A stretch of 64,000 bases of DNA, from assembly GCF_026571515.1 (NCBI RefSeq), contig NW_026864050.1, positions 1-64,000 on the forward strand, read 5' to 3'. The notes beneath the pieces were generated by a model. The model saw only the letters and a list, made by a program, of their open reading frames with translations, made no database searches and was not told the DNA's origin. The first letter of the stretch is position 1. The number at the start of each line of letters is the position of its first letter. This DNA comes from Ruditapes philippinarum (lineage: Eukaryota). The position numbers and the translations under genes were made by a program. Shown piece after piece: positions 6,336-53,126 of this stretch.

Positions 6336-7703
6336 GAGTATTCGGACTCAATGTCTCAAAAAGGACAATTTGTGGTCATACAATAACAGCACGAATGATA
6401 TTTGTAATTATTGAGGAGAATATGGGATATTGTTATCTAACTAAAGGGAGAGAAATTAAGGGGAAAAAAATACACAAAGTATCAGGAATGTAATAAACTT
6501 ATTTGTTTATTTTTATTCAAGATGTTCTCTATGTTCCTGAAAAGTGTACATATTTAATATTCTTGAGTATGAGAATTTACCAGAATGTAAATGTTTTTAT
6601 AAACATATTGAGGCAGTTCAGGGATATACCAGAATTAATAACGAGAACTTGACAAAAATGCTCTTTTTTTTGTACACAACTGTATATAAAATAACAGGAC
6701 CAATGCTTCATGCTTAGAAGAGTTAGGGAAATGATCACAATGTTTTGTTGCTAAGACGTATGTTATAACATGTATTGTATATAGTTACACTCACAATGTC
6801 TGTGATATTTTAGAGATATGAGAATCAAAGAATTCTTCAATGACCTTGAACCATCCTCTGTGTACATATTGTTCTTGTTTTGATGTTTTGGGAAAGACAT
6901 GTGCAGGGACAATCCTAAGCACAATCCTAACCAGTAAACAGCCAGCGGAAAAACAATTGTTACGAAAGGATTGGTCTTTTGGGATGTGAATATAGACTAT
7001 AATTATTTACCCAAACTGTACCTGAATTTAAAAGACATTAACTCTCTAATATAAATGGTCGCTATATAGAGGTCATGATTTACAGAATGCTAATAGCAAA
7101 AATGTTTTGACTATGTAACCAGTATACTAAGGAAGACCATCTTAACATTCGTACAGCCTGATAAGATTCTGTAGTTTTAGCTGTTAAAAGTAGTATGCCT
7201 CCAGATTTATGCTAATTTTTTAAAAGCTATTATCAAGTAAAATATTGTCAAGTGAAATAAAGAAAGTAAGTAAAATAAAAAAGTAACTTACACATTGCAA
7301 ATGGCACTTAAAATCTAAAAAAATATATCAAAAATAGGTCAGAATAGGTAAAAATAACCCCTACTGTGTTAGTCACGCAGTAGAAATATAAATACTGCAA
7401 AATAAGTCATTAATTGCATGTAACATATAAACTATTTTATAATTGTTAACATTTTTACTTTTCTAAAAATCTTAATAAATTTTTCTCAAGATTACTTTTC
7501 TTGAAATAGTTGGTCCATCTTGATTCATTAAAACCTTTTATACTACTGGATGGAAAGTTCCATATATTTAATAACTAACACCTATCTGTTGTTACAGAAA
7601 TTCAGAAGTGATAGTAACTTAAGAATTTTAAAAAAACAATCAAAACTCTGTCACAGGTTTTGAGGAATTCTTTGATTTTTAAACTCTCTTATTTTGTTGA
7701 AAT

Positions 7704-9138
7704 TTATTATGCCCCCGCCATGTAATGGCCGGGGCATATAGTGTTACCCTGTTCCGTCATTCCGTCCTTCCGTCCTTCCGTCCTTCCGTCCTTCCATCCT
7801 TCCGTCCTTCCGTCCTTCCGTCATTCTGTCATTCCGTCATCATCAGTTTCCGTTCATTATCTTAAGAACGGTTGGGCACATTCAACTCAAATTTGACATA
7901 TGGATATGTCATGAGAAAATACAGGTCAAGTTCGAATTTGGTCATGGTTCGATGATTTTTGGCAGAGTTGTGCCCCTTTTACTTTGAAAATAATATGAAA
8001 TTTCAGTTTCTGTTCATTATCTCAAGAACGGTTGGACACATTCAACTCAAACTTGACATATGGATATGTTATGAGAAAATACAGGTCAAGTTCGAATTTG
8101 GTCATGGTTCGATGATTTTTGGCAGAGTTATGCCCCTTTTACTTTGAAAATAATATGAAATTTTCAGTTTCCGTTCATTATCTCCCCAACGGTACAACAC
8201 AATCAACTCAAACTTGACATATTGATGCGTCAAAGGAATGCGCAGGTCAAGTTCAAATTTGGTCGTGGTTCGATGATTTTTGGCAGAGTTATGCCCCTTT
8301 TACTTTGAAAATAATATGAAATTTTCAGTTTCCGTTCATTATCTCCCTCAAGGTACAACACATTCAACTCAAACGTGACATATGGATGCGTCAATGGAAT
8401 GCGCAGCTCAAGTTCAAATTTAGTCATGGTTCAATGATTTTTGGCAGAGTTATGCCCCTTTCACTTTGAAAGTAATATGAAATTTTCAGTTTCCGTTTAT
8501 TATCTCCCCAATGGTACAACACATTCAACTCAAATTTGACATATGGATATGTTTTTGGAATGCGCAGGCCAAGTTCGAGTTTGGTCATGGTTCAATGATT
8601 TTTGGCAGAGTAATGCCCCTTTCACTTTGAAAATAGTATGAAATTTACAGTTTCTGTTCATTATCTACCTAACAGTGTTACATTTTAAATTTTAATTTGA
8701 CATATGGATATGTCAAAGGAATGGGCAGGTCAAGTTGGAATTTGGTCAGGGTTTGATGTTTTTTTGGCAGAGTTATGTCCCTTTCACTTTGAAAATAATA
8801 TAGATACATCTTAAGAATAAGCAGTTTAAGTTTGAATTTGGTCATGGTTCAATGATTTTAGACAAACTTATCTTTCCTGAATGTTGGAAAAATTTTGAAC
8901 TTTCAGTTTCAGCACTCATTCTTTTAGCCATTATTTTGGCTACAAATATGCAATATGCTTTTTCTAAAGGTTAAGACTGAATAATTTCAGTGCCTTGAAC
9001 GTTTTATGGAAATGGTTTGTGTTAACATTGAAAAGTTTTAAGGGCTTTGAACTTAAAATGAAAAAAAAAAATTAATGCACCATCTGAAATTTTGGCTGCA
9101 TGCGGGGGCATCCGTGGCATGATGACACATTTCTAGTT
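7704..9138 (+). mobile_element. Helentron-associated (HINE/DINE-like) element with ~161-bp internal satellite array
   Basis: 5' TTATTATGCCCCC...GGGGCATA subterminal inverted repeat, (TTCCGTCC)n microsatellite ~7750-7840, six to seven ~161-bp monomers (CAGTTTCCGTTCATTATCT at ~7843, 8005, 8165, 8326, 8487, 8648), 3' GGGGGCAT plus short hairpin and CTAGTT. This matches the known bivalve HINE layout. Confidence 0.8.
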
Positions 9139-16300: not shown

Positions 16301-19300
16301 TATGCTTATAAATTTGCTAAAATAAAAAATTTGTTTAAAGTAACTTTATATAGGGGGGAAAAAGTTGAAAAATATCTAATTCTGCGTAAATCAATTAGAA
16401 ATGAATTGTAAATTTATTTCCTCTGTATAATACAGATGTAAGTATGCAAAATGGCGTTATAGACAGAGCATGGTTTGAGCAGCAGGCTTTTAAATTTTGT
16501 TTTGGATAAAAAGCATGCAAAAAGTCAATATCTAAGTCTGTGCATGGTAATTGAGCCATCGCATGACAAACAAATAATGGCTTTGCAGTCCAGATGGATG
16601 TACAGACCACCTGCACATTGCGGCGGCTGTCAGGATCGCATGCTGTTCGAGATTACACACTATAACAAATAAGAGAAACTGATATGCGAACAGCATGGAT
16701 CCTGATCAGACTGCGCGGATATGCAGGCTGGTCTGGATCCATGCTGGTCGCAAACACACTATGTTGGTTTTGTCATGACACGGCTCATTATGTTAAACTC
16801 ATTGTGCACTTTCAGCTTATTTATTTTGATGTGTTATTTAAATCATTTTTTGAATTTTAGGGGCATGTAGACCATTAATCATCAATTATTTTAACTTGTG
16901 ACTCTGATCTGAAACTAAATATAATAGCATATATAAGTAAAGGGAGGCAACTGGTATGATAAAAATACTTAAAAGACTATGTGATTCATTTGTTGAGACA
17001 TATGATATTCCCTTGTGTGATGTGCAACGAATTTCTTATACCACATGACACTTTGTATAGCAAAAACCTTTAACTTTGTTTATGATTATGGGCATCTAAC
17101 ATTAAATGATGAATTAGAGTTGTGGGAAGGGAAGTGGGACAGAGAGAAAGAATATAGTCTGTTCAAAAGATTATTCATTTCAGTTTTCAATAATTACCAT
17201 AACACATTTTTTAAGTCATAAATTTATCTGTACCCTATGGTGATTTCCAAGTATTTCTCATTATATAGAATATAACAGAGTCTGCTTAGTAACATTCAAC
17301 TTTTAACTTTGTTCATTGTTGGAAGATCTCCTACCTCCCCCTACCCTTGTCAAGATTTTTTATATATTAATCATCATATTTAAACGATCTTACTATACGC
17401 TATAATGAACCGAAGTAAGTTAGTTTTGAGTTGTTTTGTCAATAATTGCTTCATAATAATATTTTTAAGCTGAAAAAAAAATATTACAAGAATTGTCCGA
17501 GTTTAAACGTCCCCGTCTCAGGGAAAGTTTTATTATAAGCATAATTGTCTATTAAAAAGATTGCAAGTAATAAGAGTCAGACTTCACTCAAAAAATTAAT
17601 GTACTCAATAGCTAGCATCTACAAATGCCCACATGGATTTATACGATACTGTAAACATGAAAACCGGAATCGAAAAACTTCTATCATGTTACCCCTTATG
17701 ACCGCAATGGTGACTTTGACCTTGAGGTACGCGCGTGCAGATGTTGTGCATGACTAATAATCTAATTAAATATTACTATTCATGTGTTCAGTATTTTCAA
17801 AATCACCTTGAAGTCTAGTAGAAGTGTATAGAATCGGCACACAAAATATACCCCTAACACAAGGACAGCTATTATCAATCTTTGAACCTTAAGTGTGACA
17901 TTTGGTAAGTAGGTGCCCATTTTTTGCGCTGACATGATTCATCTTATTATTTGTGATATTGTGCAAAGTATTTTAAAATTCCAGGTTATGGATCTGACAA
18001 AAATATACCCTATTCTGAGTATGGTAAATGTTTGACCTCTATGTGAACCTTGACTTGGAGTAGGGTGACACATGTTGTTATGCAGACAATCACCTTTATC
18101 ATTGTGACTATTTGTGCAAGTATTTCAACATCCTTGATAATATGAAGAAGTTATAAAGAGGGCACAAATAAACCATCATACACTAGATCTGTTTAACCTT
18201 TGACATCTAATGTGACTTGACTTGTGAGGTAGGGTGTGCTAGGTGTGGTACTCCATGACATAGTTTGTCTTATTATTGTTGACTAATTTGTGCCTAGTTT
18301 ATTTGCAAATATCTCTGAAGAAGTACATTTAAATCATACCTAACATATAGCGTTATCTTTTGACCCTTCTAAGTTGACTTGAAACTTGGGAGGCTAGGGA
18401 TCAGTGTTGCCATTACACATTGTCTTATTATAATGACTTTTGGTGGCTAAGCTATTTAACAAAATCTTTGAATTATAAAAAAGTTATGACTGGACGAAAA
18501 TATAGCCCTGTAAATAGACTATGTTAATCTTGACTCCAAAGTTGACTACCTTTAGTAGGATGACCGTTTGTTTGCACATGAAACATGTTCATTATAAGGA
18601 ACAATTGTGGCAATTATTTACTAAAAGTCCTTCAAGATAAGAAAGTTATGGACGACACATTGAGTATACATCAAATAGACATGTTGACCTTTGAAGAGCG
18701 CAAGTGGACCCTTGCACCTGGAGGTAGGGTATGGTTGTAGGCATGACACATCGACTATTATAAAAACATTTTGTGTCCAAGTTATTCAGATTTCCTTTGA
18801 TAAATGATAAAAGTTATGAACCGGACAGCTAAATATACCTCTGTAATAGACTATGTTAATCTTTGACCTCCAAGTGTGACTGAACCTTTTGGAGGGTAAG
18901 TTGACCGTTGTTGCGCATTTGACACATGTCTCATTAATTGGTGATACAATTTGCAAGTATTTTACAAAATTCCCTTCAAACATAAGAAAGATATGGCGAA
19001 CGAATATACATAAATAGACAATGTTGAACTTGAATGAGAAGTGTGACCTTGACCTTGGAGATTAGGGGTCTGGTTTTATGCACATGAACGTCGTCTTATT
19101 ATATAAGAAACATTTGTGCCAAGTTTTCAATTCTTTTAATAATGACAAAGTTAATGGACAGGAACATAAGTGTGATGGACGGACGAAGAGTACGTGCAGA
19201 GCTATACTATTATCCCTTTTTTCTTCGAACAGTGCGGGGAACCAAAGTGCTTAAGTAGCTTCAGCATAAACAATTATATTTCTGTCTTACTTCCATAACA

Positions 19301-27300: not shown

Positions 27301-29542
27301 GCTACAAAAAAAATATAAATCAAAGTTCTGGGGTCGTAAACAGACCCATCACGGTAGTCACTGTTACATAAAATAAAGTTGTAGGTTGAAAGAAATTGAT
27401 TTTCTATTTGCCGAAACTGTTTTGACCAAGAGCTAAGGTATGTGGTAGTAGTAAGTCAGGCTGCTTATTGAGCATTACAATAGTTATATACATTGTAAAT
27501 CATTTTACAAGGCTGAAAGATACATGTATTCCTTCATTTGGAGTTTTTATCTATTTTTCCAATTACTTTCAGTCTGGTACATGTGATTTTGACCTGCTTT
27601 ATTGTCAGTGATAGGTTTTTATGTAATTATGAAAAACAAACACACTTCCGATAATTTTATTACACGTGGAATTGAAAAGACAGTGTGAATTTTTATCAAA
27701 GAATTTTCAAACACTTTTGTATACTTGTTTGATAAAAAACAGATGATGTTCACAAATGTTTGAAAAAAAGATACCAGACTGTAAACAAACTTTACAAAAT
27801 TGATTTCATAAAGTGTTAGAATATTTGGTATGATAGAATTCAATTAAAATAAATCACTAAGGGGTCAGTTGGTGTCTAATGAATTAATTTCTAATATTTT
27901 CTAATTTATGTTTTGTATACAAATCATTCAGTGGTGGCATGGCCAGATGGTTTAAAGCATCAGACTAGTTATCTAAGGATCGCTATCCGAATGGGTTCGA
28001 ACAATGTCATGGGCCTGTCATTGTTTCCTTGAGCAAGAAACTCTACACTTGTTGCTCAGTGTTGGTTGGTTCCAGGAATGGATTCAAAAGTGTGACTAAA
28101 AGCTTCCAGCTCAACTAAAATAAATTCTGTATAAACCAAATACAAATCATTATAATTTCAGGCATTGATGGATGTAGATGAAAAATTTATCCGACCAGTT
28201 CCTCAGAAAATGGTAAATACACTTTATATCAAATAACAAATTCGACTTCTATTTGTACATGTATAATGATAGAAAAGTGTGTTCTTATCAATATTTTATG
28301 AGCTCAGCAATTTTTTAACATTGCGTAATAAAATTGCTCAAGACCTGATGAAAATTTTTCCATGTAATGTTTTAATATATACATTTCAAGAAGTAAATTA
28401 TTTTACAAGGAAGTTAAACATCTATGTATGAATTTTATAATTTATATTAAATGTGGTTATCTATGAATGATCATACATTCTCTTATAATTTACATATGTT
28501 AAATGTTTATTTTTAAATATTGCCTCTTATAAATGTCCATATATAAAAACTCCTTGTCATTAAATGTCACATATTTAATTAAGTATATTTTCTGTTTATA
28601 ACAAAAATTTTTTTGTTAAAAAAGATGGAAAATAAATTGATGTATAAGAATCATATGTATTGTCATGATGGTTTAGATTGGTGTTAAATTTTGCCAAGAT
28701 TAATCTAAATTCTTGTTATATGTATATAGAACATGAAATCTAAGAAGGCTACCAGCTCCCAAGAGAGTTTGCTTGCAGAAGAAACAGACAAGTTATCAGT
28801 CAACTCAGATGTCTCTAGAGGTTGTCATGGAGATAGAAACTCAGAAATTAGACAGGCTGATCTTAGAGAAGGTGAAAAAAAGATTGATTTACGAGAAAAA
28901 TTGAAATTGTCTAAAGCCAGTGGCGGAAAATATTCTAGTACTAAAACGTCAGTGTCAACAGAGACTTCTAGTGGTAGATCAAGTTACAAAGAAACTTTTA
29001 ATAGAAGTTTTGATTCTAAAGACATTCTAGAGAGGTCAAGGTCAAAAGAGGGAAGAAAAGATGTAAAAGAAACTTCAGACAAGAGGTCAAGGTCAAAAGA
29101 GTTAAAAAGTTCAGGGTCAGGTTTTAATAAAGAAGGAATGTGTTCAAGAACTAAAGGAGTGCAAGAAAATTTAAGTTCAGATGATTCTTCTGATCAAAGG
29201 TCATCTAATAAAACATTAGAAAGGTCAGAGGTCAAAAGGTCAAGAGATTTTAAGGATCATTATAGAAACTATATGTCAGATAGTAATGTTTTTGTAAAGA
29301 GACAGCAGGAGAAACTAAAAGACAATGGTTCAAAATCAGATGGGGAGAGTAAACCAGTTTCCAGTGACAGACGAAAGAAAACTGGTGGGGATTTAAAAAA
29401 ACATTTTCAGCCATTTTGGCCGTTATATAAAAAATGGACAGAAAATCGTTGCTATAGCGAGTATGAAATTGTTACAAGGCATGTGAACCAATTATTTATA
29501 AGGGGAGATAATGTTGTCAGTGTATCTATAGCTGATTATTAA
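24348..29542 (+). CDS. LSM11: U7 snRNP-specific Sm-like protein LSm11 (461 aa)
   Basis: Exons 24348-24729, 26626-26765, 28162-28212, 28730-29542, all phases compatible. N-terminal LDPLSPKFDPRRALY...FNNLAEFENYL; Sm1 GPLSVLRKCV...CRGYVIGFDKHFNMALMDVDE; Sm2 RHVNQLFIRGDNVVSV; long spacer between Sm1 and Sm2. This is the diagnostic LSm11 layout. Confidence 0.92.
24973..25020. repeat. 24-bp perfect tandem duplication
   Basis: CGCCCGACTAGAACTGACACTGAA twice. Confidence 0.9.
25270..25790 (-). repeat. Degenerate ~218-bp tandem repeat with a tRNA-like head in each unit (~2.5 units)
   Basis: CCTGACC(A/G)GGACT.GAACCAG (reverse box B) at ~25302, 25515 and 25735. CATACTC...GCTATATTGAAAT at ~25415 and 25634. 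Confidence 0.55.
27930..28140 (+). mobile_element. tRNA-derived SINE in LSM11 intron 2
   Basis: Box A TGGCCAGATGG, box B GGTTCGAAC, core GTTTCCTTGAGCAAGAAACT, TGGTTGGTTCCAGGAA, and an A-rich tail ending ~20 bp before the exon 3 acceptor. Confidence 0.65.
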
Positions 29543-29767: not shown

Positions 29768-30592
29768 TTTTTAGCTTAACTATACAAAGTATATGGAGAG
29801 CTGTCCTACTCCTCCGGCCTCCGCATCCAGATTTCAGATTAAAGTTTTAAGTAAAATATTTTACACTTTTTCATTTCTTAATTCAAATATATGTTCCTTA
29901 ATCATCAACCACATCTTATGTGACAAAGTTCATAACTCTAGCTCCAATATTTTCAGATTTATCTCCCCTTGAACTTAGAATTTTCCTTAAAAAATATTAT
30001 TTTTTACCTAACTTCTTTATTACTTAAAAAGTCAGCTTCATACTTCAAATATATGTTCCTTATCATCATCCACATCTTATGTGACAAGGTTCATAACTCT
30101 AGTTCTAATGTTGCAAGGATTAACCTTCCCGTTAACTTAGATGATTTTACTTGAAAAATGTTATTTTTAACTATAACTTCTTTAGTTTTGAAGATATCTA
30201 CCTCAAACTTCAAATACATATTCCTTATCATCAACCAGATCTTATGTGACAAGGTTCATAACTCTTGAAGCAATATTTTTCAGATTTATCTCCCTTTGAA
30301 TATACAAATTTCTTAAAGAAATATTATAACTTCTTTACTTTTTATGGTATCTACTTCAAACTTCAAATACATATTTCATCTCATTACACATATGTTGTGT
30401 GACAAGGGCCATAACTCTAGTGTGACTATTTCCAAAAATTTTCCCCCTTGAACTTGGAATTTAACGACAATAGCTTTTTGTTATTAGAAGAAATATATTT
30501 ATATCATAATTGATTTTTCTTTAATAGTTTTGTCTTACTGCGTCCTGTATTTAATCAGTCGAGCTTCGCTGTCTCCTGTGACAGCTCTTGTT
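29768..30592 (+). mobile_element. HINE-like element with ~163-bp monomers (~4 copies)
   Basis: 5' TTTTAGCT...GAGCT; TCTTATGTGACAAGGTTCATAACTCT repeated at ~29914, 30075, 30240, 30393; 3' GTCGAGC plus CTGTC...GACAG hairpin and CTCTTGTT. Confidence 0.7.
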
Positions 30593-30639
30593 TGTTATGC
30601 TTTATGTTGGTTTGCTGATTTTATGCCAGTTTCATCTCA

Positions 30640-30980
30640 TTTTTATACACCCAAAAATATTTCAGCATACATGTATATTGTTATGCACCTTGTTGTCCGT
30701 TTGTCTGTCTGTTAGCAGTTTCATGATCAGTCTGAATCTTTTGAAATGGTGGAAGGAAATTGAAACTTCTAGGCAGAAATGTTAACCATAATGAGGTGAT
30801 GTGCAGAGCTCAGGTTTGACCTTTCTTAGGTCAAGGTCACACTTATGAATTTCAAAATTTTGTGTCATCTTTGTATCTTGTGAACAGATAGAAGGAAAAT
30901 TAAACTTTTTGGCGGAAACATTACTTATAATGAGGCAATGTGCATAACACAGCGCTTTCAAGATCAAAATTATCTTAATT
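30640..30980 (+). mobile_element. Truncated HINE-like element
   Basis: TTTTATACACCC start, GTCTGTCTG microsatellite and about two degenerate monomers containing AGGTCAAGGTCAC. Confidence 0.45.
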
Positions 30981-31817
30981 TTTGAATTATTCTGAATTTA
31001 TGTCATGATTATTGAATTGAAATAATTCTTTCAGATTTTTGTAGCTTCAGATTTTTGTAGCTTCAGATTTTTGTAGCTTTATTGTGGGCCATTAAACAAT
31101 TTTACCAAAACAAGCTATCATTGATTCTGATAATCAATTTGGGTACCACTTTTTGATCTTTTTCTCTAGTGCAGCAGATAAAGTTATCATTTCAGGATGA
31201 CCGTGATTCTGCGATTTAAGAGTTTTCGTGACTCTTTAGGGATACATGTATCCTCCATTATTATTTTTATATTCGCAAGAGCTGGTATCTTTTGCTGTGT
31301 GTTGCCACCTAAATTGTAATAATATTGCTTTATTTTTCTGGTCCTTCAGGGTCATTGATTCCAATACTTTCAGTGTTGAGGATAAGCATGAGACTAAAAA
31401 AAAGGATTGGAGCACCACAGGAAATGATAAAATGCTAAAATCTTGCCTTTTTACCAAACAGAATGAACTTTAAAAGGTCTTATTCATCTTTTCACACGGA
31501 TTTTTGTATGTAAATGCATGAAAAATGTAATAATCAGCGAAAAAAACGATATTTGTCTATTTTGTGATCATATTGTGAGGTACTGCTCCAATCCTGTAAT
31601 GAGTTAAATCCTGAGGATAATACGCAGTTTAAGTCTGTTTAGGTGTCATGAGAGATGTCTAAGTTTCCTTTATCTCTTGTGAACACAGTCTGAATATAAA
31701 CCATAACTGCAAGTTGAAACTATTTGTTTATGTTTCCTTCTGTTTATTGCTGTAAGGGACTTGTTCTTTACAGAATTGCAATATTTAGATGTGTCTTCTT
31801 ACCCTATAGAAAATAAT

Positions 31818-32041
31818 TGAGCTCCAAACAAAATGCGTTTGCGACAAGCATGGATCCAGACCAGCCTGCACATCCGTGCAGTCTGAACAGGATCCATGCT
31901 GTTCGCTTACAAACCCTATAACAAGTAGAGAAACTGATAGCGAACAGCATGGATCCTGATCAGACTCTGCGAATGCGCAGGCTGGTCTTGATCCATGCTA
32001 GTCGCAAACGCATTACGTTGGTTTTGTCATGGCGTGGCTCA
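31818..32041. mobile_element. Foldback MITE copy (224 bp, deletion in left arm)
   Basis: TGAGC...GCTCA ends and long inverted arms, same family as 32284-32520. Confidence 0.85.
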
Positions 32042-32283
32042 ATTATGTTTCCTTTGCTAGATGCTTCTAGGGTGAGGTGACTTTGACATTATAAGTAGAT
32101 ATAGGTAATTTAGAATATTTTATTATAAAGAGGCCATGATATATCTTCAGTAGATCTTTTTCATTATCATAAAAACAAAAGTTTAGTGGTTCTAGTACTC
32201 TCAGGTGCCCTCTAATGCCTGAAATTATACATGAAGGAGCACCTGACGTCTTCCACCACCTGAATAGCTGGAAAATCAATATA

Positions 32284-32520
32284 TGAGTCGCGCCATGATA
32301 AAACCAACATAATGGGTTTGCGACCAGCATGGATCCAGACCAGCCTGCTCATCCGCGCAGTCTGATCAGGATCCATGCTGTTCGCTAACATACTCTATAA
32401 CAAGTAGAGAAACTGATAGCGAACAGCATGGATCCTGATCAGACTGCGCGGAAGCGCAGGCTGGTCTGGATCCATGCTGATCGCAAACCCATTATGTTGG
32501 TTTTGTCATGGTGCGGCTCA
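32284..32520. mobile_element. 237-bp foldback MITE, inserted at the 3' part of a SINE fragment
   Basis: ~100-bp inverted arms (TGAG.CGCGCCATGA.AAAACCAACATAATGGGTTTGCGACCAGCATGGATCCAGACCAGCCTGC...GTTCGCT), ~37-bp spacer, AT/TA flanks. Confidence 0.9.
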
Positions 32521-32914
32521 TATTAATGTTATTGTTACTCACTGAATCCTCCATATAAAAGCTGAAAAAGATACTCTTAAACTTTATGAATACATCACTA
32601 TACTCAGAGTTCTTCATTAGTAAAGATATATGGCAGCCTATATATTTTGCTGCCTTTTTAGATAAATTAATGGATTCTCAATTCAAATGGTTTTCTTTTT
32701 TAATCTCTCTTATTTTAACAATGGACAGTTACAAATTTAAAGCAGGGCAACTTCAATTAAAATTTGTGTGAGAGATGGTTAAATGATGTAGAGCACAAAC
32801 CTCTCCTTGTGTTCCTACTATTTTTAAACACATATACATGTATGTATATATACGTTTTTTTATGGGAGATTATTATTACAATGCAATCTTTGAAGTACAT
32901 GTTGAATTATGTCT

Positions 32915-34702
32915 TTATTATGCCCCCATTTCGAAGAAAAGGGGGTATATTGCTTTGCACTTGTCGGTCCGTCGGTCCGTCGGTCTGTCGGTCCGTCGGT
33001 CCGTAGACCAAATGGTTTCCGAAGTGATAACTAAAGAAACCCTTAGGCCTAGGAACTTCAAACTTGGTATGGTGATTGGTCATGATCAGTAGATGACCCC
33101 TATTGATTTTGGGGTCAAGGGGTCAAAGGTCAAGGTCACATTGACCTTGTAAGCAAAAACGGTTTCCGATCAATAACTAAAGAACCTTAAGGCCTATGAA
33201 CTTCAAACTTGGTATGGTGATTCGTCATGATCAGAAGATGACCCCTATTGATTTTGGGGTCAAGGGGTCAAAGGTCAAGGTCACATTGACCTTGTAAGCA
33301 AAAACGGTTTCCGATCAATAACTAAAGAACTTTAAGGCCTAGGAACTTCAAAGTTGGTATGGTGATTGGTCATGATCAGTAGATGACCCCTATTGATTTT
33401 GGGGTCAAGGGGTCAAAGGTCAAGGTCACATTGACCTTTGTAAGCAAAAACGGTTTCCGATCAATAACTAAAGAACTTTAAGGCCTAGGAACTTCAAACT
33501 TGGTATGGTGATTGGTCATGATCAGTAGATAACCCCTATAGATTTTGGGGTCAAGGGTCAAAGGTCAAGGTCACATTGACTCTCTGGGTAAAAACGGTTT
33601 CTGATCAATAACAAAAGAACCCTTAGGCCTAGGAACTTCAAACTTGGTATGGTGATTGGTTATGACCAGCAGATGACCCTATTGATTTTGGGGTTAAGGG
33701 GTCAAAGGTCAAGGTCACATTGACCTTGTAGGTAAAAAACGGGTTTCCGATCAATAACGAAAGAACCTTAAGCCTAGGACTTCAAACTTGATATGGTGAT
33801 TGGTCATGATCAGTAGATGACCCCTATTGATTTTGGGTCAAGGGGTCAAAGGTCAAGGTCACATTGACCTCTTAGGTAAAAAGGATTTTCCGATCAATAA
33901 CTAAAGAACCCTTAGGCCTAGGAACTTCAAACTTGGTATGGTGATTGGTCATGACCAGCAGATGACCTATTGATTTTGGGGTCAAGGGGTCAAAGGTCAA
34001 GGTCACATTGACCTTGTAGGTAAAAACGGTTTCCGATCAATTAACTAAAAACGCTTAGGCCTAGGAACTTCAAACTTTGTATGGTGATTGGTCGTGACCA
34101 GCAGATGACCCCTATTGAGTTTTGGGTCAAGGGTTCAAAGGTCAAGGTCACATTGACCTTGTAAGTAAAAACGGTTTCTGATCAATAACTAAAGAACGCT
34201 TTGGCCTAGGAATTTCAAACTTGGCATGGTGATTGGTCATGAGCAGCAGATGACCCCTATTGATTTTGGGGTCAAATGTCAAGGTCACATTGACCTTGTA
34301 TGTTAAAACGGTTTCCGATCAATAACTAAAGAACCCTTAGGCCTAGGAACTTCAAACTTGGTATGGTGATTGGTCATGACCAGCAGATGACCTATTGATT
34401 TGGGGTCAAGGGGTCAAAGGTCACATTGACCTTGTAGGTAAAAACGGTTTCTGATCAATTAACTAAAAACGCTTAGGCCCTAGGAACTTCAAAACTTTTG
34501 TATGATGATTGGTCGTGACCAGTAGATGACCCCTATTGAGTTTTTGGGTCAAGGGTCAAAGGTTAAGGTCATGACCAGTAGATACTTGATAACCCTTATT
34601 AATTGTTTGATCACTGGGTCAGAAGTCATGCATAATAACCTTATCACATGACTAATTGGCTGCTGATAGGGGGCATACATGTTTTACAAACATATCTTGT
34701 TT
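32915..34702 (+). mobile_element. Young HINE-like element with ~11 x ~145-bp satellite monomers
   Basis: TTATTATGCCCCC...GGGGGTATA 5' inverted repeat, (GTCGGTCC)n microsatellite, monomers starting GGTTTCCGATCAATAACTAAAGAAC, 3' GGGGGCATA plus ATGTTT..AAACAT hairpin and CTTGTT. Confidence 0.85.
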
Positions 34703-35018: not shown

Positions 35019-36677
35019 TTAAATCATTGTATGTTGTAGTATATTTCTGTTAATTACAATAGGCATGCAGTAGAAATTACACAAAGCAGCTTTGACTGGT
35101 CGAGAGTACTGTTCAATCGTTTTTGTAGCCGGGTCAAACATCATGGTAGAATATTGGTTACCATAGCAACCATCGATTAAGATACGCCCGCCATGTACAA
35201 CCACTCCAAAATGATCGAACGCAATGCCGGTTGGCGAAACTTCCAGTGCGTCGTCTTTAAATGTAACGACCTCGCCGTGGCCGTAGAAGATATAGATGGT
35301 GTTGTCAACAACAGCTGTTCTGCTCACTGTTGTCTCAAATTCTGGCATGTCACACACGACTTTGCAAGAATTTGTATCCGTGTCGAAGCACTGTACTTTT
35401 CCACAACTACTTTTCTTTTCCGATTTTCCTCCAAATATGTACACATTTTTCCCCAAGGTTGCAACGGCCGCAAAAGACACGGGTATTGCAAGTGAGCCAA
35501 CAACAGTCGTTACGTTTGTTCTTGTGTTGTACATTTCGATCTCGGAAATTGGTGCTGGGACTTTCTTACTACCGCCAACAATGTAGATGTGACCGTCAAT
35601 GGCTGTCATGCAATGCCCCCAACGTCCTTCACTCATATCGGCACATATTTCCCACTCATTATCAGTCGCCGAATAGCGTAGCATACGTTTCTGTCCTAAA
35701 TACCCTCCAGAGAGATAAACATCGTTGTCACTTGAGCAGACGGCAAAGCGCGCGCCGGGCTCTTCCGGTATTGAAGCAAGGCTATACTCCTTTTCCTTGT
35801 TGAAACTGAAACACTTTATCTCAGTACTTTCTGGGTTTGGTTGTCTACTTCTTGTTCCAACGACACAAATTAGCTCCTCAGTACGATATTGGAACTGCCT
35901 CGGATTCACTGTTATTTCCAAATGTCCTGTGTTCCTAAAGTTTGTGATTTTGTTTAATATTTTCAGACCTGATTCAGAATTAGATAACAGTACATGCCTT
36001 TTCAGTTTTTCTAGGTACTCTTCGCTAAGGAGAGGATATCGTACAAAATTGAAGAGTTTTTCTAAGTGTATACTTCTTTGTTTAGGATCTTCAGCAATCC
36101 ATCCCAGTACAGCATCACACACGACTTCTTCCGAGGATGCATTAAGATCATCAACATTTATAATTGCGATCAATTCGTCAACGCTCAGATTCATGAAGGT
36201 TTTGCACTTCGTAACGCTTTCAAAGTGTTCTAAAATATATACCAAACTTTGTTTAACAAGAGACGCACACCCAAGGTCCGATGCTAGTTTATATATGCCC
36301 ACGCAAGTTTCAGAGGTAAGTCTCAGCACTAGGAAATCTTCACAGATATCTTGTAAACATGGAATTTGGAGCTGAACAGCGGCAGAGAGTACCTTTTCAG
36401 TATTTATTTCCACATCTTCTGTTTTACCCGTGTATATGTACAGTAACACCGTTTCAAATGTTTGACTTTCAATATTCAAAACATCTACTGTTTCCTCTTG
36501 CTTATGTAAGAATAATTCTTTGAAATAGTTGGACAGGGAGCCCAGTATCACGCGATGACACCTGTACGTTTTGTTTCCCGCCTTCACCGTCACGTCCGTG
36601 TTTTGCTGCTTTAACCACATTCCCTCTACACCCTTCGCCAGGTTATCCAAATATTTCTGACGATACTTGCGTTCCAT
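35019..36677 (-). CDS. Kelch-like BTB-BACK-Kelch protein (552 aa), probable Cullin3 substrate adaptor
   Basis: Uninterrupted ORF: BTB (TDVTVKAG..YRCHRVIL...SNYFKELF), BACK (ILEHFESV...FMNLSVDEL...SEEVVCDAVLGW...VRYPLL) and Kelch repeats (VYLSGG, RWGH..IYIVGG, VYIFGG). A probable 5' UTR intron has its acceptor at 36710-36711 and donor near 37777. Confidence 0.92.
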   Translation of the reverse strand: MERKYRQKYLDNLAKGVEGMWLKQQNTDVTVKAGNKTYRCHRVILGSLSNYFKELFLHKQEETVDVLNIESQTFETVLLYIYTGKTEDVEINTEKVLSAAVQLQIPCLQDICEDFLVLRLTSETCVGIYKLASDLGCASLVKQSLVYILEHFESVTKCKTFMNLSVDELIAIINVDDLNASSEEVVCDAVLGWIAEDPKQRSIHLEKLFNFVRYPLLSEEYLEKLKRHVLLSNSESGLKILNKITNFRNTGHLEITVNPRQFQYRTEELICVVGTRSRQPNPESTEIKCFSFNKEKEYSLASIPEEPGARFAVCSSDNDVYLSGGYLGQKRMLRYSATDNEWEICADMSEGRWGHCMTAIDGHIYIVGGSKKVPAPISEIEMYNTRTNVTTVVGSLAIPVSFAAVATLGKNVYIFGGKSEKKSSCGKVQCFDTDTNSCKVVCDMPEFETTVSRTAVVDNTIYIFYGHGEVVTFKDDALEVSPTGIAFDHFGVVVHGGRILIDGCYGNQYSTMMFDPATKTIEQYSRPVKAALCNFYCMPIVINRNILQHTMI

Positions 36678-37923
36678 AGTGTCTCGGTTTGCGCTGTCAA
36701 CTTCCTCTTCTATAAAATATAAAATGTAATTTTTTAATATTGAAAATACAAAATTAGGTCTGAAAATGGCAGTGGTTACAGTACTTCAAAATAAATGGAT
36801 ATTTGTAATAATGCAATTGTAAACGAAGTTATTAGCTCTGTCTTTATAAATTGAAGATTTTATCATAATGTATTGTAAACTTCTTTTGCCGCAGGTATCT
36901 CAAACTGAAATTTTTCTTTTAGATAAGTCATCTTACATGACCAGTAATTAAAAATCCACCCCATTTAATAATTAACACTAAAGTTTTCACTTTAAAGTAA
37001 TATTTTCCATTCTATAAACAAAACGCTGTACATAAAGTTACTTCTATAATATGACTGTTTTAATCCATTAGTAAATATAAACAGTATTAGTTTTTAAAAA
37101 TATTATCTTAAAATCCTTACGCACTTAGCAAAGTAAAGTTGAAAAAACATTAATTTGCTGTAAAGCCGATTTCCAGTACGCGCCGCGATTAGAACAAAAA
37201 TAAGTACATGCTTTTGCTCTTGACTTTATTGGTCTTTTTAATACAGGTCAACGTTTTGTTTGTTTTTAATCTTATTTAGTGTGGATTTTAAGCTATTTAT
37301 AATTTTACTAAACATATACTGCATTGACAAAGGTTATTTAAAGTGTATAAACGTGTACATTTGTTTTGTAAATGTCTGTCATACTGTATATAATAGATAC
37401 AGTAATTGTCTTAGTACGATAACATTTGATCATCATGTATTTTTTTTAATTATTGTATACTATAACTTATTGTTGAGTTACTTCGAATTATTTGCGTCCC
37501 ATCACCATGGGTTCGAATACTGCGCGAAGATTATCGGAATCTAACGGAAATATTACATTTAATTATTTTTAGCTCTGTTTTCAATATACAAGTCCCTGTT
37601 TCTTTTCGATTACTAATAATACAATGGTATTTGTCTTTATTTACCGGCAAATATTTCCTTAATTACAGTTTATAAACTGAAGATACTGTAGTTAAACAAA
37701 TATATATATAAAAAAATCAAATAATTTCTAATATTTCATCTCATTCATTTTGCTGCTATATAAGGAAAAATACTAACCTGTTTTGTCCGTATATTGCGAA
37801 TTCTTATGTGTATTATTTAAAGGCGAAAGACTGTAAATACCATACACTTTACTACAATCGTTGATACCACTCGGACATGATCGAATAATGACGGAAAGTG
37901 CCGAAGATGGTTTGCGACGTCAC

Positions 37924-39014: not shown

Positions 39015-45838
<6,824 letters not shown>

Positions 45839-50660: not shown

Positions 50661-53126
50661 ATGAACGTGTCTTCTGAAACTACGGTAAGTTTTTCAAAAG
50701 TTCCTTGTACAAATTAATGCAATGATTGAAATAATTAGATTTAAATTATCATTTACAATGCATGTTGAAAATTTTAACTGTCATTCAGAAGATTCAGAAA
50801 GAATTAAGAAATTTGCGTTTAAACTAAACTATTCCAGAGAATGTTTATCGCATTCCTTTGTCGCATTTTATTTAACTTTTCTGGCAAAATAATAATTTTG
50901 ATGCAAACCAATTACAGGTTTTTGATGTAACATCACCATTAGATGTCACGACCGAAGCGCCGGACACGACCTGGTCTGCAAATACTACGATGACTGGAAG
51001 TGTGGCTACGGCGGTCATGTCAACTGCAACGGATCTAACAACTAATATTGCGGAGACTACAACCCATTTATTTGATACGTATGGTATTTTCATACATCCG
51101 CACTGGAAAAATTTCCCTATAGTTTCAGACGAATGGCATTACCTGATTGGAATAATTATAACTTGTGTTGGAATAACAGGGATCATTGGAAACTCCCTCG
51201 TTATTTGGATGTTTTCAAGGTATGCTGCGTATCTTCATACTCTATTATTTGGAAATTATTTAAATTTATTCAAGTACCTATAAAGCTTATGTTGTACAGG
51301 TTTTTTTTATCTTGATATTTCGTGTGCATCAGAATATGTTTCCTGTAACAATTTTAATTTTTTTACATGATTTCGTATTTCCTTTTCTTTTTATTTTCGT
51401 CGGATTTTCTTATTGTTATTGGTTGTGTTATTTTAGGGAAAAGTCGTTGCGAACATCTTCGAATATGTTCATTGTAAACCTTGCCATCAGTGACCTAACG
51501 TTCTCAGTTGTAAATGGTTTTCCTCTATTCAGCATCTCATCTTTTAACAAAAGATGGATATTTGGGACAGCTGGTATGGCATAACACTTTTTATATATAT
51601 AATAATTATTATATGCAGCACATTATTTCAATATTTCAATGGTGAACTATTATTTAATCGGTACATTTTCATTAAAGCAGCACCTAAGGAAATAACAATC
51701 TAAAATGATTTTTAAATAACACGTACAATTTTATTCATTCTTTATGGGTTTTGCTATATTCTTTTTGTTGTAAAGAAAGAAGCTTACCAGATGTGCACAC
51801 ATCTTTGATTATTTGATTTCAGCATGCGAATTCTATGGTTTGATTGGTGGAATCTTTGGGCTGATGTCAATAAACACCATGGTGGCTATAGCAATTGACC
51901 GTTACTACGCCATAGCTCGTCCTCTACACGTAGCTAAATTCATGACACGGAAACGAGCGTTTCTTATGATCGTTACTGTTTGGATATGGTCATTTGCTAG
52001 CGCAACTCCACCTATCTTTGGTTGGGGCCGGTATATTCCGGAAGGATTTGGTACATCTTGCACGTACGACTATCTCACACGCACAAACAATAACATAACC
52101 TTCATATTTTTCATGTACATTTTCGGATTTGCGGTGCCACTTGGTGTTATTATCCTCTGTTATGCAATGATCATACGGGCTGTCAAGGTACACGAGAATG
52201 AAATGAAGAAAACAGCTAAGAAATTAAATGCTGAAATGCGTTCAAATCAAGACAAGAAAAATATGGAGATTAGGGTAGCAAAAATAGCAATGTCGATTCT
52301 TGTATTGTATCTTTTGTCATGGCTGCCATATGCTACAGTCGCCTTGATTGGAATGTTTGGCGATGCATCATTCGTCACACCATTTTGGGCAGAAATACCG
52401 GTACTGTTTGCAAAAGCATCCGCGATGCATAATCCTCTAGTTTACGCACTCAGTCATCCTAAATTTAGAGCAGCTTTGCAAACGCATGCGCCCTGGCTGA
52501 CTTGTTGCTGCAAACCTGAAGCAAAGCCCGCAATGTCTACAGGTACTTCTTTTAAGGACAGGAATGCCAGTAAAAGGAGTGTAACCAGTGTCACAGGTGC
52601 CAGCGTTAGTAGCGAGATGAGCAATGTCAGTGACTCCATGTACGCTGACATGGAATTTCGTCTTCGTAAACTCGAAGAAGAACAGGCAGCGAAGAGAGAT
52701 CCAAAGACGGTTTCGAAAAAGAAGGCGAACAAAAATCAGGCTGTTGAACAAGCAGATGACATTCCAGCGGGAAAAATAATTCAGGATCTTGCACATGCAT
52801 TAGTTGAGGCAACATCACGGGAAAAAACGAGTCATCCAGTACAACCTGTGTATCTCCCTAGTAGTATTTTAAAAGGCAAGTCGTCTGATTCCAAAGAACC
52901 GTCTGATGGCATTTTCGTTCTTGACAGTAATACAATACCTGAACTTGCAAAATACTTGACAACATTTTCAAACTTAAACAACGAAAACATTGAAGGTGTG
53001 GTTAATCAAGGTCTAGAGTTGTCACCCGAAGTTCCACCATATGAGTCTGTTGGAGCTAGGCCAAAAACTTCGAATGTTGAGGATAATGATGGTAGCGGCG
53101 TAGGCTATGATGAAGCACAACTTTGA
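50661..53126 (+). CDS. Gq-coupled rhabdomeric opsin (r-opsin; molluscan rhodopsin/melanopsin clade), 588 aa
   Basis: Exons 50661-50684, 50918-51219, 51437-51573, 51823-53126. Motifs: IHPHW, LRTSSNMFIVNLAISD, CEFYG (Tyr at site 113), DRY, YIPEG..TSC (Glu181 counterion), retinal Lys in FAKASAMHNPLVY, and the HPKF r-opsin motif. A non-coding exon probably ends at 50334. Confidence 0.95.

Follow-up and report, generated by a model that had tools for sequence, protein, structure and literature searches.

The window, i.e. the 64,000-nt stretch of Ruditapes philippinarum DNA analysed here, carries a complete non-coding element of around 1.8 kb (~32912–34702, with the 5′ end placed approximately), which houses a tandem array as its core and lies between an LSM11-like gene and a single-ORF BTB-BACK-Kelch gene (Table 1). 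The LSM11 stop codon (29542) is found around 3.4 kb from the start of the element and the Kelch stop codon around 320 bp from its end. A preliminary description of the locus had placed the element ~300 bp from the Kelch and ~3.4 kb from the LSM11 stop codon; these distances hold for its edges, and the nearest oestrogen-response element (ERE) is 587 bp from the Kelch stop. The last LSM11 exon encodes a long Ser/Arg/Lys-rich stretch before its Sm2-like end. It also holds eight AGGTCA words, of which seven are read in frame as Arg-Ser, and since these codons create the word, AGGTCA alone proves little. The best match of the opsin gene located further downstream is PDB 2z73/2ziy, squid rhodopsin, which, like the oyster-type ends of the element, points to a mollusc, likely a bivalve, as the host.

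Table 1. Positions of genes, repeat elements and motifs in the window
Feature	Position	Strand	Remarks
HINE-like element	7703-8880		TTATGCCCCC start, TTCC/GTCC microsatellite, six repeats of 161 bp, a single AGGTCA in most
Degraded HINE-like element	17500-19250	-	~162-168-bp period, many small indels; head similar to the one at 33 kb
LSM11-like gene, last coding exon	28730..29542	+	3′ end faces element; matches weak but consistent, E 1e-3 to 2e-4
Repeat element, 165-bp array without half-sites	29880-30620	-	LSM11 3′ flank, head-to-head with 30660-31000
Short repeat element with DR0 core and related HINE head	30660-31000	+	LSM11 3′ flank
MITE-like element, ~230 bp, two neighbouring copies	~31825-32050, 32287-32520		Long terminal inverted repeats
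HINE left module	32912..32962	+	T-rich start, 5′ subTIR and partial inverted repeat forming a hairpin, fold z -3.0
5′ subTIR TTATGCCCCC	32918-32927	+	Within HINE left module
Partial inverted repeat GGGGGTATA	32941-32949	+	Few bases inside 5′ subTIR; hairpin z -3.0
(GTCG GTCC)n microsatellite, GTCY/GTCK type	32963..33004	+	Cf. Table S2 of PMC7492417
Central tandem array	33027..34571	+	Period 145, 10.8 copies, 89% matches
Second conserved segment	33091..33110	+	Just upstream of block; contains inverted half-site TGACCC; served as search word
Direct-repeat block, monomer 1	33112..33138	+	Four RGGTCA half-sites, spacings 2, 1, 0 nt; ends in TCAAGGTCA
TCAAGGTCA of monomer 1	33130-33138	+	Closes direct-repeat block
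First perfect IR3/ERE palindrome of nine	33133..33147	+	3′ half unconserved across homologous lineages
Exact AGGTCAnnnTGACCT, start positions	33133, 33278, 33423, 33712, 33856, 34000, 34145, 34282, 34418	+	Exact-word match
HINE right module	34669..34702	+	3′ subTIR, palindrome, T-rich end
3′ subTIR GGGGGCATA	34669-34677	+	Within HINE right module
Palindrome ATGTTT-TAC-AAACAT	34679-34693	+	Directly after 3′ subTIR
Single-ORF BTB-BACK-Kelch gene	35019..36785	-	3′ end faces element; stop 35019-35021
Rhabdomeric-type opsin gene and trypsin-family protease exons	50876-53126 and 39015-40092

The element shows the features described for non-autonomous Helentrons (HINEs) (PMC4067079, PMC7492417), i.e. 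subTIRs at both ends, a 5′ partial inverted repeat, a GTCY-type microsatellite, central tandem repeats and a 3′ palindrome, and the class given in the preliminary description therefore stands. The sequences TATGCCCCC (32919–32927) and GGGGGCATA (34669–34677) are exact reverse complements over 9 bp, which is slightly shorter than the 11–15 bp given for HINEs in the same two sources. Both ends of the element are T-rich; HINEs would be expected to insert into a TT or T-rich site without target-site duplication. No ORF of at least 100 aa lies inside the element, with one stop-to-stop frame overlapping its left edge, and an Rfam search of the element gave no match, and a structured RNA was rejected on this ground. 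As such, the element is an ordinary addition to the HINE class, which three further HINE-like heads in the window suggest to be abundant.

Half-sites are also enriched in other repeats of the window, i.e. at 17.6–19.2 kb (seven vs 1.6 expected), at 30.7–31.0 kb (three vs 0.2) and in the 161-bp array at 7.8–8.8 kb (four vs 0.9), and absent from the 165-bp repeat at 29.9–30.4 kb. The first two regions had been regarded as diverged monomers of the 33-kb family. Their enrichment in half-sites was reproduced, but neither contains an IR3, the family profile finds nothing but the DR0 word in them (E 0.043 and 0.27, respectively), and the period at 17.6–19.2 kb is ~162–168 bp. Membership of the 33-kb family was thus rejected; they are separate HINE-like families.

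Half-sites of the tandem array

The array is made up of ten full monomers of 137–146 bp, 84–99 % identical in pairwise comparison, and one partial monomer of 112 bp. The direct-repeat block recurs in each monomer, with deletions of units in monomers 9 and 10, and the 36-nt DR2-DR1-DR0-IR3 block is exact in five of the ten full monomers. Altogether 57 half-sites were counted (2.7 expected), and TCAAGGTCA occurs nine times, DR1 ten times, DR2 six times and DR0 eight times, in agreement with the direct repeats and the extended half-site first noticed in the monomer. The earlier count of nine perfect IR3 copies and a near-perfect one was likewise recovered. The exact IR3/ERE AGGTCAcatTGACCT is found nine times in the array vs 0.01 expected in shuffles, a comparison that overstates the surprise since the copies stem from tandem amplification of one monomer. 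The spacer of the nine exact AGGTCAnnnTGACCT is CAT in all cases, the near-perfect copy at 33568 has a 3′ half reading TGACTC, and the matches to GGTCAnnnTGACC in the window are confined to the nine array copies.

Within the array, five of the 36 block columns vary, compared with 41 of the 109 other columns (p=0.005), and the ERE is nearly invariant (two substitutions in 150 cells). Many of the differences between monomers are homopolymers that are longer or shorter by one base, and some of these may be errors of long-read assembly.

The preliminary description suggested that the array could be a platform of the estrogen receptor (ER) that is used by the host, i.e. an enhancer, a sink or a heterochromatin anchor, with effects on Kelch, LSM11 or genome-wide. 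Nine perfect, nearly invariant EREs are in favour of this reading. However, the high identity among full monomers makes the nine EREs copies of one amplified motif, their invariance in one array reflects recent amplification, and the element sits beyond the 3′ ends of its two neighbouring genes, remote from where they start.

Conservation across homologous monomers

Homologues were collected from metagenome contigs using as search word a 20-mer directly upstream of the half-site block and outside it. This word matched 27 loci, 23 of which gave 73 colinear monomers, mostly from tandem arrays of 144–146 bp; loci L112, L113, L121 and L124 were excluded, having no full-length monomer. De-duplication at 97 % reduced 84 monomers to 74, including 64 from outside the window, and the set for rate estimation comprised 49 monomers after removal of the window rows and of all rows holding the search word. 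The homologous monomers are 55–75 % identical to the window monomer, and GTCY microsatellites and HINE heads are present in several of the loci. Two assemblies account for 16 of the 27 loci, which limits any dating of the conservation. Position-specific monomer variants, i.e. a distinct first or last unit, were seen in the arrays L111, L119, L127, L117, L123, L114 and L129, like those described for DTC84 (PMC3879986).

A gapped pattern avoiding the block gave 42 loci on genome contigs, nearly all of them chance bacterial matches; the block was present only in L084, and L090 fitted the profile upstream without possessing the block. A pattern from the 3′ side gave 24 loci with one family member (L153). 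A core-word scan (56 loci) was ascertained on the core and hence left out of the rate estimates; many of its matches arose by chance in bacteria or belong to repeats of a single contig, and none of 62 loci had an exact IR3 immediately following the core. The DR0 core is also contained in 147–162-bp tandem repeats on contigs inside MAGs, which are likely host-derived. Several short contigs of GTDB MAGs (a subset of L008–L056, L084 and L153) are composed of animal-type tandem repeats of 146–162 bp, likely representing host contamination.

Comparing the majority sequences of 11 lineages, identity is 1.00 for TCAAGGTCA, which is present in all 11, 0.92 for the four half-sites, 0.55 for the rest of the monomer and 0.48 for the 3′ half of the ERE. 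The upstream segment also reaches 0.92, a value that is partly ascertained because the same segment was the search word. In the test proposed by the preliminary description, the AGGTCA block is thus better conserved than the remaining monomer; the notion that it is the novelty of a young family has to be abandoned, since the block is old and was inherited across homologous lineages. In the lineage majorities, the four half-site positions are held in register, with spacers of 2, 1 and 0 nt and a monomer length of 144–146 bp.

On the tree of the 49 monomers, changes per site amount to 3.56 in TCAAGGTCA, 4.21 in the half-sites, 5.60 in the upstream segment, 8.02 in the rest, 8.33 in the ERE spacer and 9.67 in the ERE 3′ half, these figures being subject to the provisos that the trees are fast approximations, that the site tests treat columns as independent and that the search word adjoins the block. 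For TCAAGGTCA vs the rest, p=1.2e-4, and none of 90 control windows was as slow. Base-matched resampling gave 32 changes vs 73.8 expected for TCAAGGTCA, the corresponding counts in the 3′ half of the ERE being 58 and 50, and half-sites were slower for each of the bases A, C, G and T, which rules out an artefact of base composition. The ratio of internal to terminal changes is 0.10 in TCAAGGTCA vs 0.59 in the rest (Fisher p=6e-4). Constraint is hence strongest on internal branches, pointing to selection on propagating elements, but it is not limited to them, since within arrays, too, greater similarity than in the rest is seen for the half-sites in 11 of 12 cases and for the ERE 3′ half in three of 12.

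Apparent conservation of this kind could also come about with no protein reading the block, if slippage, together with conversion among monomers or among families, kept renewing a degenerate microrepeat of 6–8 nt. Monomers 9 and 10 of the window array, like several homologues, have lost whole units of 6–8 nt, which would fit, and an aligner can put any GGTCA unit on any half-site. Slippage, however, should blur the spacers and vary the unit number, whereas the register, the fixed and distinct spacers and the monomer length are all maintained, and a simple compositional effect is excluded by the base-matched rates. We consider such an origin rather unlikely.

The ERE shows a different pattern. 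Across lineages, its 3′ half is free of constraint (p=0.89; of 93 control windows, 77 were as slow or slower), and RGGTCAnnnTGACCY is kept in only five of the 11 lineages, the window included. Among the 64 de-duplicated homologues, TCAAGGTCA is found in 40, RGGTCAnnnTGACCY in 18 and a perfect ERE in 10. In the oyster HINE arrays supplement (PMC7492417), four ERE words with a CAG or CAT spacer had no match within the first 400 letters per cell. What would be expected of a functional ERE is therefore found in part, i.e. the consensus IR3 is there in nine copies, but its 3′ half evolves at background rate, and the emphasis initially placed on the ERE is not supported.

Nevertheless, the ERE is not a mere accident, since TGACCY exactly 3 nt past the last half-site has a chance of 0.00036 in shuffles. 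The commonest ERE spacer among the homologues is CAG (35 of 64), giving a perfect 15-bp palindrome around one base, and in L153 (757–810), on a contig inside a bacterial MAG that is likely host DNA, a family monomer forms a perfect palindrome with ~14-bp arms centred on the ERE spacer. From the CAG palindrome spacer and this longer fold-back we infer that the IR3 likely goes back to an early event in the family, in which the last half-site was duplicated by fold-back, and has been drifting since.

These results also bear on the proposed ER platform. The low shuffle probability of the TGACCY spacing and the recurrence of RGGTCAnnnTGACCY in the homologous monomers as well as in the independently anchored L153 would be in line with it, and CAG is the spacer enriched at human ERα sites (PMC2853111). 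Furthermore, the ligand-independent ERE binding by molluscan ER put forward in the preliminary description is borne out by a snail ER-like protein, which binds the consensus ERE without ligand, while the snail ERR apparently does not (PMC3778743). Yet palindrome formation accounts for both the IR3 and its C-A-G spacer, and the 3′ half is free to vary between lineages. A host-used ER platform thus appears distinctly unlikely, although ER could bind the array even if the family does not keep the ERE, as the binding by the snail protein indicates.

Another explanation is that the motifs are kept as single-strand hairpins which guide rolling-circle copying or repeat expansion. For the monomer of the window, folding predicts two stems, i.e. 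TGACCCC/GGGGTCA and the IR3 (z -2.0 and -2.3), and a conserved palindrome marks the core repeats of DTC84 (PMC3879986). In the 64 homologues, however, Watson–Crick pairing is as expected under independence at all seven first-stem pairs and close to that expectation at the six ERE arm pairs, compensatory change is almost absent (0–2 compensated cells per arm pair), and no conserved partner exists for those two direct half-sites that are best conserved. The lack of covariation therefore speaks against hairpin constraint, which had been named beforehand as a possible full account of the motif conservation, and makes the reading as hairpin guides highly improbable. Since stem pairing equals chance, the kept feature is primary sequence, as for a protein site; together with the conservation rates, this identifies the direct-repeat sequence, and neither the ERE nor a hairpin, as the conserved feature.

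A candidate docking site for orphan nuclear receptors

The extended half-site of the monomeric orphan receptors NR5A and ERR is TCAAGGTCA, and DR1 and DR2 suit dimers of RXR, COUP-TF and NR1D. In the family studied here, TCAAGGTCA is both present and constrained. We therefore tentatively favour, as a possibility somewhat short of probable, that a host orphan nuclear receptor of the NR5A/FTZ-F1 or ERR type binds the block and thereby aids the copying of the element. The old direct RGGTCA cluster ending in TCAAGGTCA, carried by each 145-bp repeat, would be the candidate docking site. A receptor docking on each nucleosome-sized unit could render the element accessible to the Rep/helicase of its partner in the germline or early embryo, and elements keeping the cluster would propagate better, with selection acting on active master elements rather than on inserted copies. 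The ERE would then be a drifting fold-back duplicate of the last half-site, and any enhancer activity in the host would arise incidentally and depend on the locus.

Candidate receptors exist in the oyster, which possesses an NR5A with FTZ-F1 box, NR5B and ERR but no NR6 (PMC4070562, PMC5041327), and oyster receptor transcripts are supplied maternally (PMC5041327). GCNF/NR6A was ruled out as the general reader, since C. gigas lacks NR6 (PMC4070562) and yet carries the DR0 core in Cg_HINE_6. As the upstream, mostly non-receptor segment is about equally conserved, the conserved unit may also be a site of ~47 bp for another protein.

A further explanation is that the direct repeats are iterons for the Helentron Rep/helicase or for a non-receptor host replication factor, with a merely coincidental likeness to receptor sites. 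Constraint on primary sequence that is strongest on internal branches would agree with this, and so would the extension of the conserved unit into the upstream non-receptor segment. Moreover, three viral contigs of 5.9–6.0 kb (L057–L062) have the 19-mer core in both inverted ends, ~150–260 nt from each end, and each end holds 10 RGGTCA half-sites, including two TCAAGGTCA. We take the size and layout of these contigs to be like those of insect densoviruses. Densoviruses replicate by a related nicking mechanism. Among the matches listed from the densovirus literature, nothing concerned the 19-mer core motif. However, the viral match was obtained by searching for the motif itself and could just as well stem from the use of a host receptor; rolling-hairpin and rolling-circle replicons may have come to use such a receptor convergently. 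In addition, transposition signals have been placed in the subTIRs and the 3′ stem-loop (PMC4067079), and the oyster elements Cg_HINE_3 and _6 have common flanks but unrelated repeats (PMC7492417). We thus assign a low probability to iterons as the explanation.

Taking docking of an orphan receptor one step further, HINE repeats of ~145 bp might constitute a widespread selfish landing pad. Rolling-circle copying would be licensed by the host orphan receptors that the cluster of invariant TCAAGGTCA and direct repeats recruits, and the ends of densoviruses may work likewise with the same word. As a side effect, multivalent platforms, which in some subfamilies include perfect EREs, would be scattered over the genomes of molluscs. 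In its full extent this remains speculative and improbable. If true, such repeats could account for a large proportion of the perfect sites available to the constitutively active ER and ERR of molluscs. The genomic location of EREs in molluscs has been described as unknown (PMC3778743), and ChIP experiments or motif scans for ER and ERR in such genomes will meet these repeats, which should then be mapped rather than masked. If binding fails, what is left is an ordinary HINE and the caution that palindrome formation in repeats yields perfect EREs.

Comparison with known repeats

The element and the Crassostrea gigas elements Cg_HINE_6 and Cg_HINE_8, i.e. Helitron-N18_CGi and Helitron-N9_CGi of Repbase, have the module order subTIR-IR-microsatellite-tandem array-subTIR-palindrome in common (PMC7492417). 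According to Table S2 of that study, the subTIR and the 3′ palindrome are nearly those of Cg_HINE_8 (palindrome TGTTT(CAC)AAACA), the layout of the left module is as in Cg_HINE_8, 3 and 6, and the IR resembles that of Cg_HINE_3 and 6. The Cg_HINE_6 monomer measures 146–147 bp, has a AGGTCAAGGTCAC core and was judged homologous by eye from supplement rows. In the first 400 letters per cell of the arrays supplement, AGGTCAAGGTCA matched 442+327 = 769 DR0 cores and the upstream search segment had no match. The first 15 matches listed for each AGGTCAAGGTCA word all belong to the 146–147-bp cluster CL6, and among the matches listed none fell in sheets CL1–CL5. Since these and other abundant HINE repeats, such as the one at 29.9–30.4 kb of the window, are without the core, the block is not needed by all HINEs. 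In contrast to the window element, the core in the Cg_HINE_6 rows listed is not followed by an IR3 and the upstream segment is missing, and the 11 monomers of the window array exceed the oyster average of ~4 (PMC7492417).

The bivalve repeats pearl, DTC84 and BIV160-Cg170 are of the same modular type, with nucleosome-sized core repeats, and their segments of reduced variability have been ascribed to protein interactions of unspecified kind (PMC3879986, PMC5139131); the conserved boxes of bivalve satellite and HINE repeats have been regarded as probably protein-bound, without experimental proof (PMC3879986). The sections consulted of PMC3879986 and PMC5139131 give no receptor identity for these boxes, and the words ‘receptor’ and ‘GGTCA’ had no matches in the texts of PMC5139131 and PMC11136912. 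For the box described here, the invariant NR5A/ERR-type word inside a cluster of four half-sites provides a named candidate. In the open-access literature searched, we found neither receptor half-sites linked to bivalve HINE or satellite boxes nor a conserved HINE box identified as receptor-type. The spreading of transcription factor sites by transposons is well precedented.

Alu elements, for instance, reportedly carry HNF4α sites. Response elements of nuclear receptors, i.e. DR2 and ERE sites, have been multiplied by Alus, and some of them are bound in vivo (PMC1785376, PMC2853111), with the Alu DR2s mostly derived from CpG decay after insertion (PMC1785376). Alus are, however, retroposons with single sites, whereas the sites of the window HINE occur in tandem, were already present in the ancestor of the family and have been conserved across lineages whose identity elsewhere is 55 %. 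Closer in kind are the heat-shock elements borne by Helitrons of Caenorhabditis (PMC6927752), in which a rolling-circle transposon, like the window element, carries dense clusters of motifs for a single transcription factor. HSF-1 binds to these elements, and a selfish origin followed by rewiring of the host has been suggested by the authors (PMC6927752). For the Caenorhabditis elements both binding and gene activation have been demonstrated (PMC6927752), while the motifs of the window element are of the class of nuclear-receptor half-sites and are known from their conservation.
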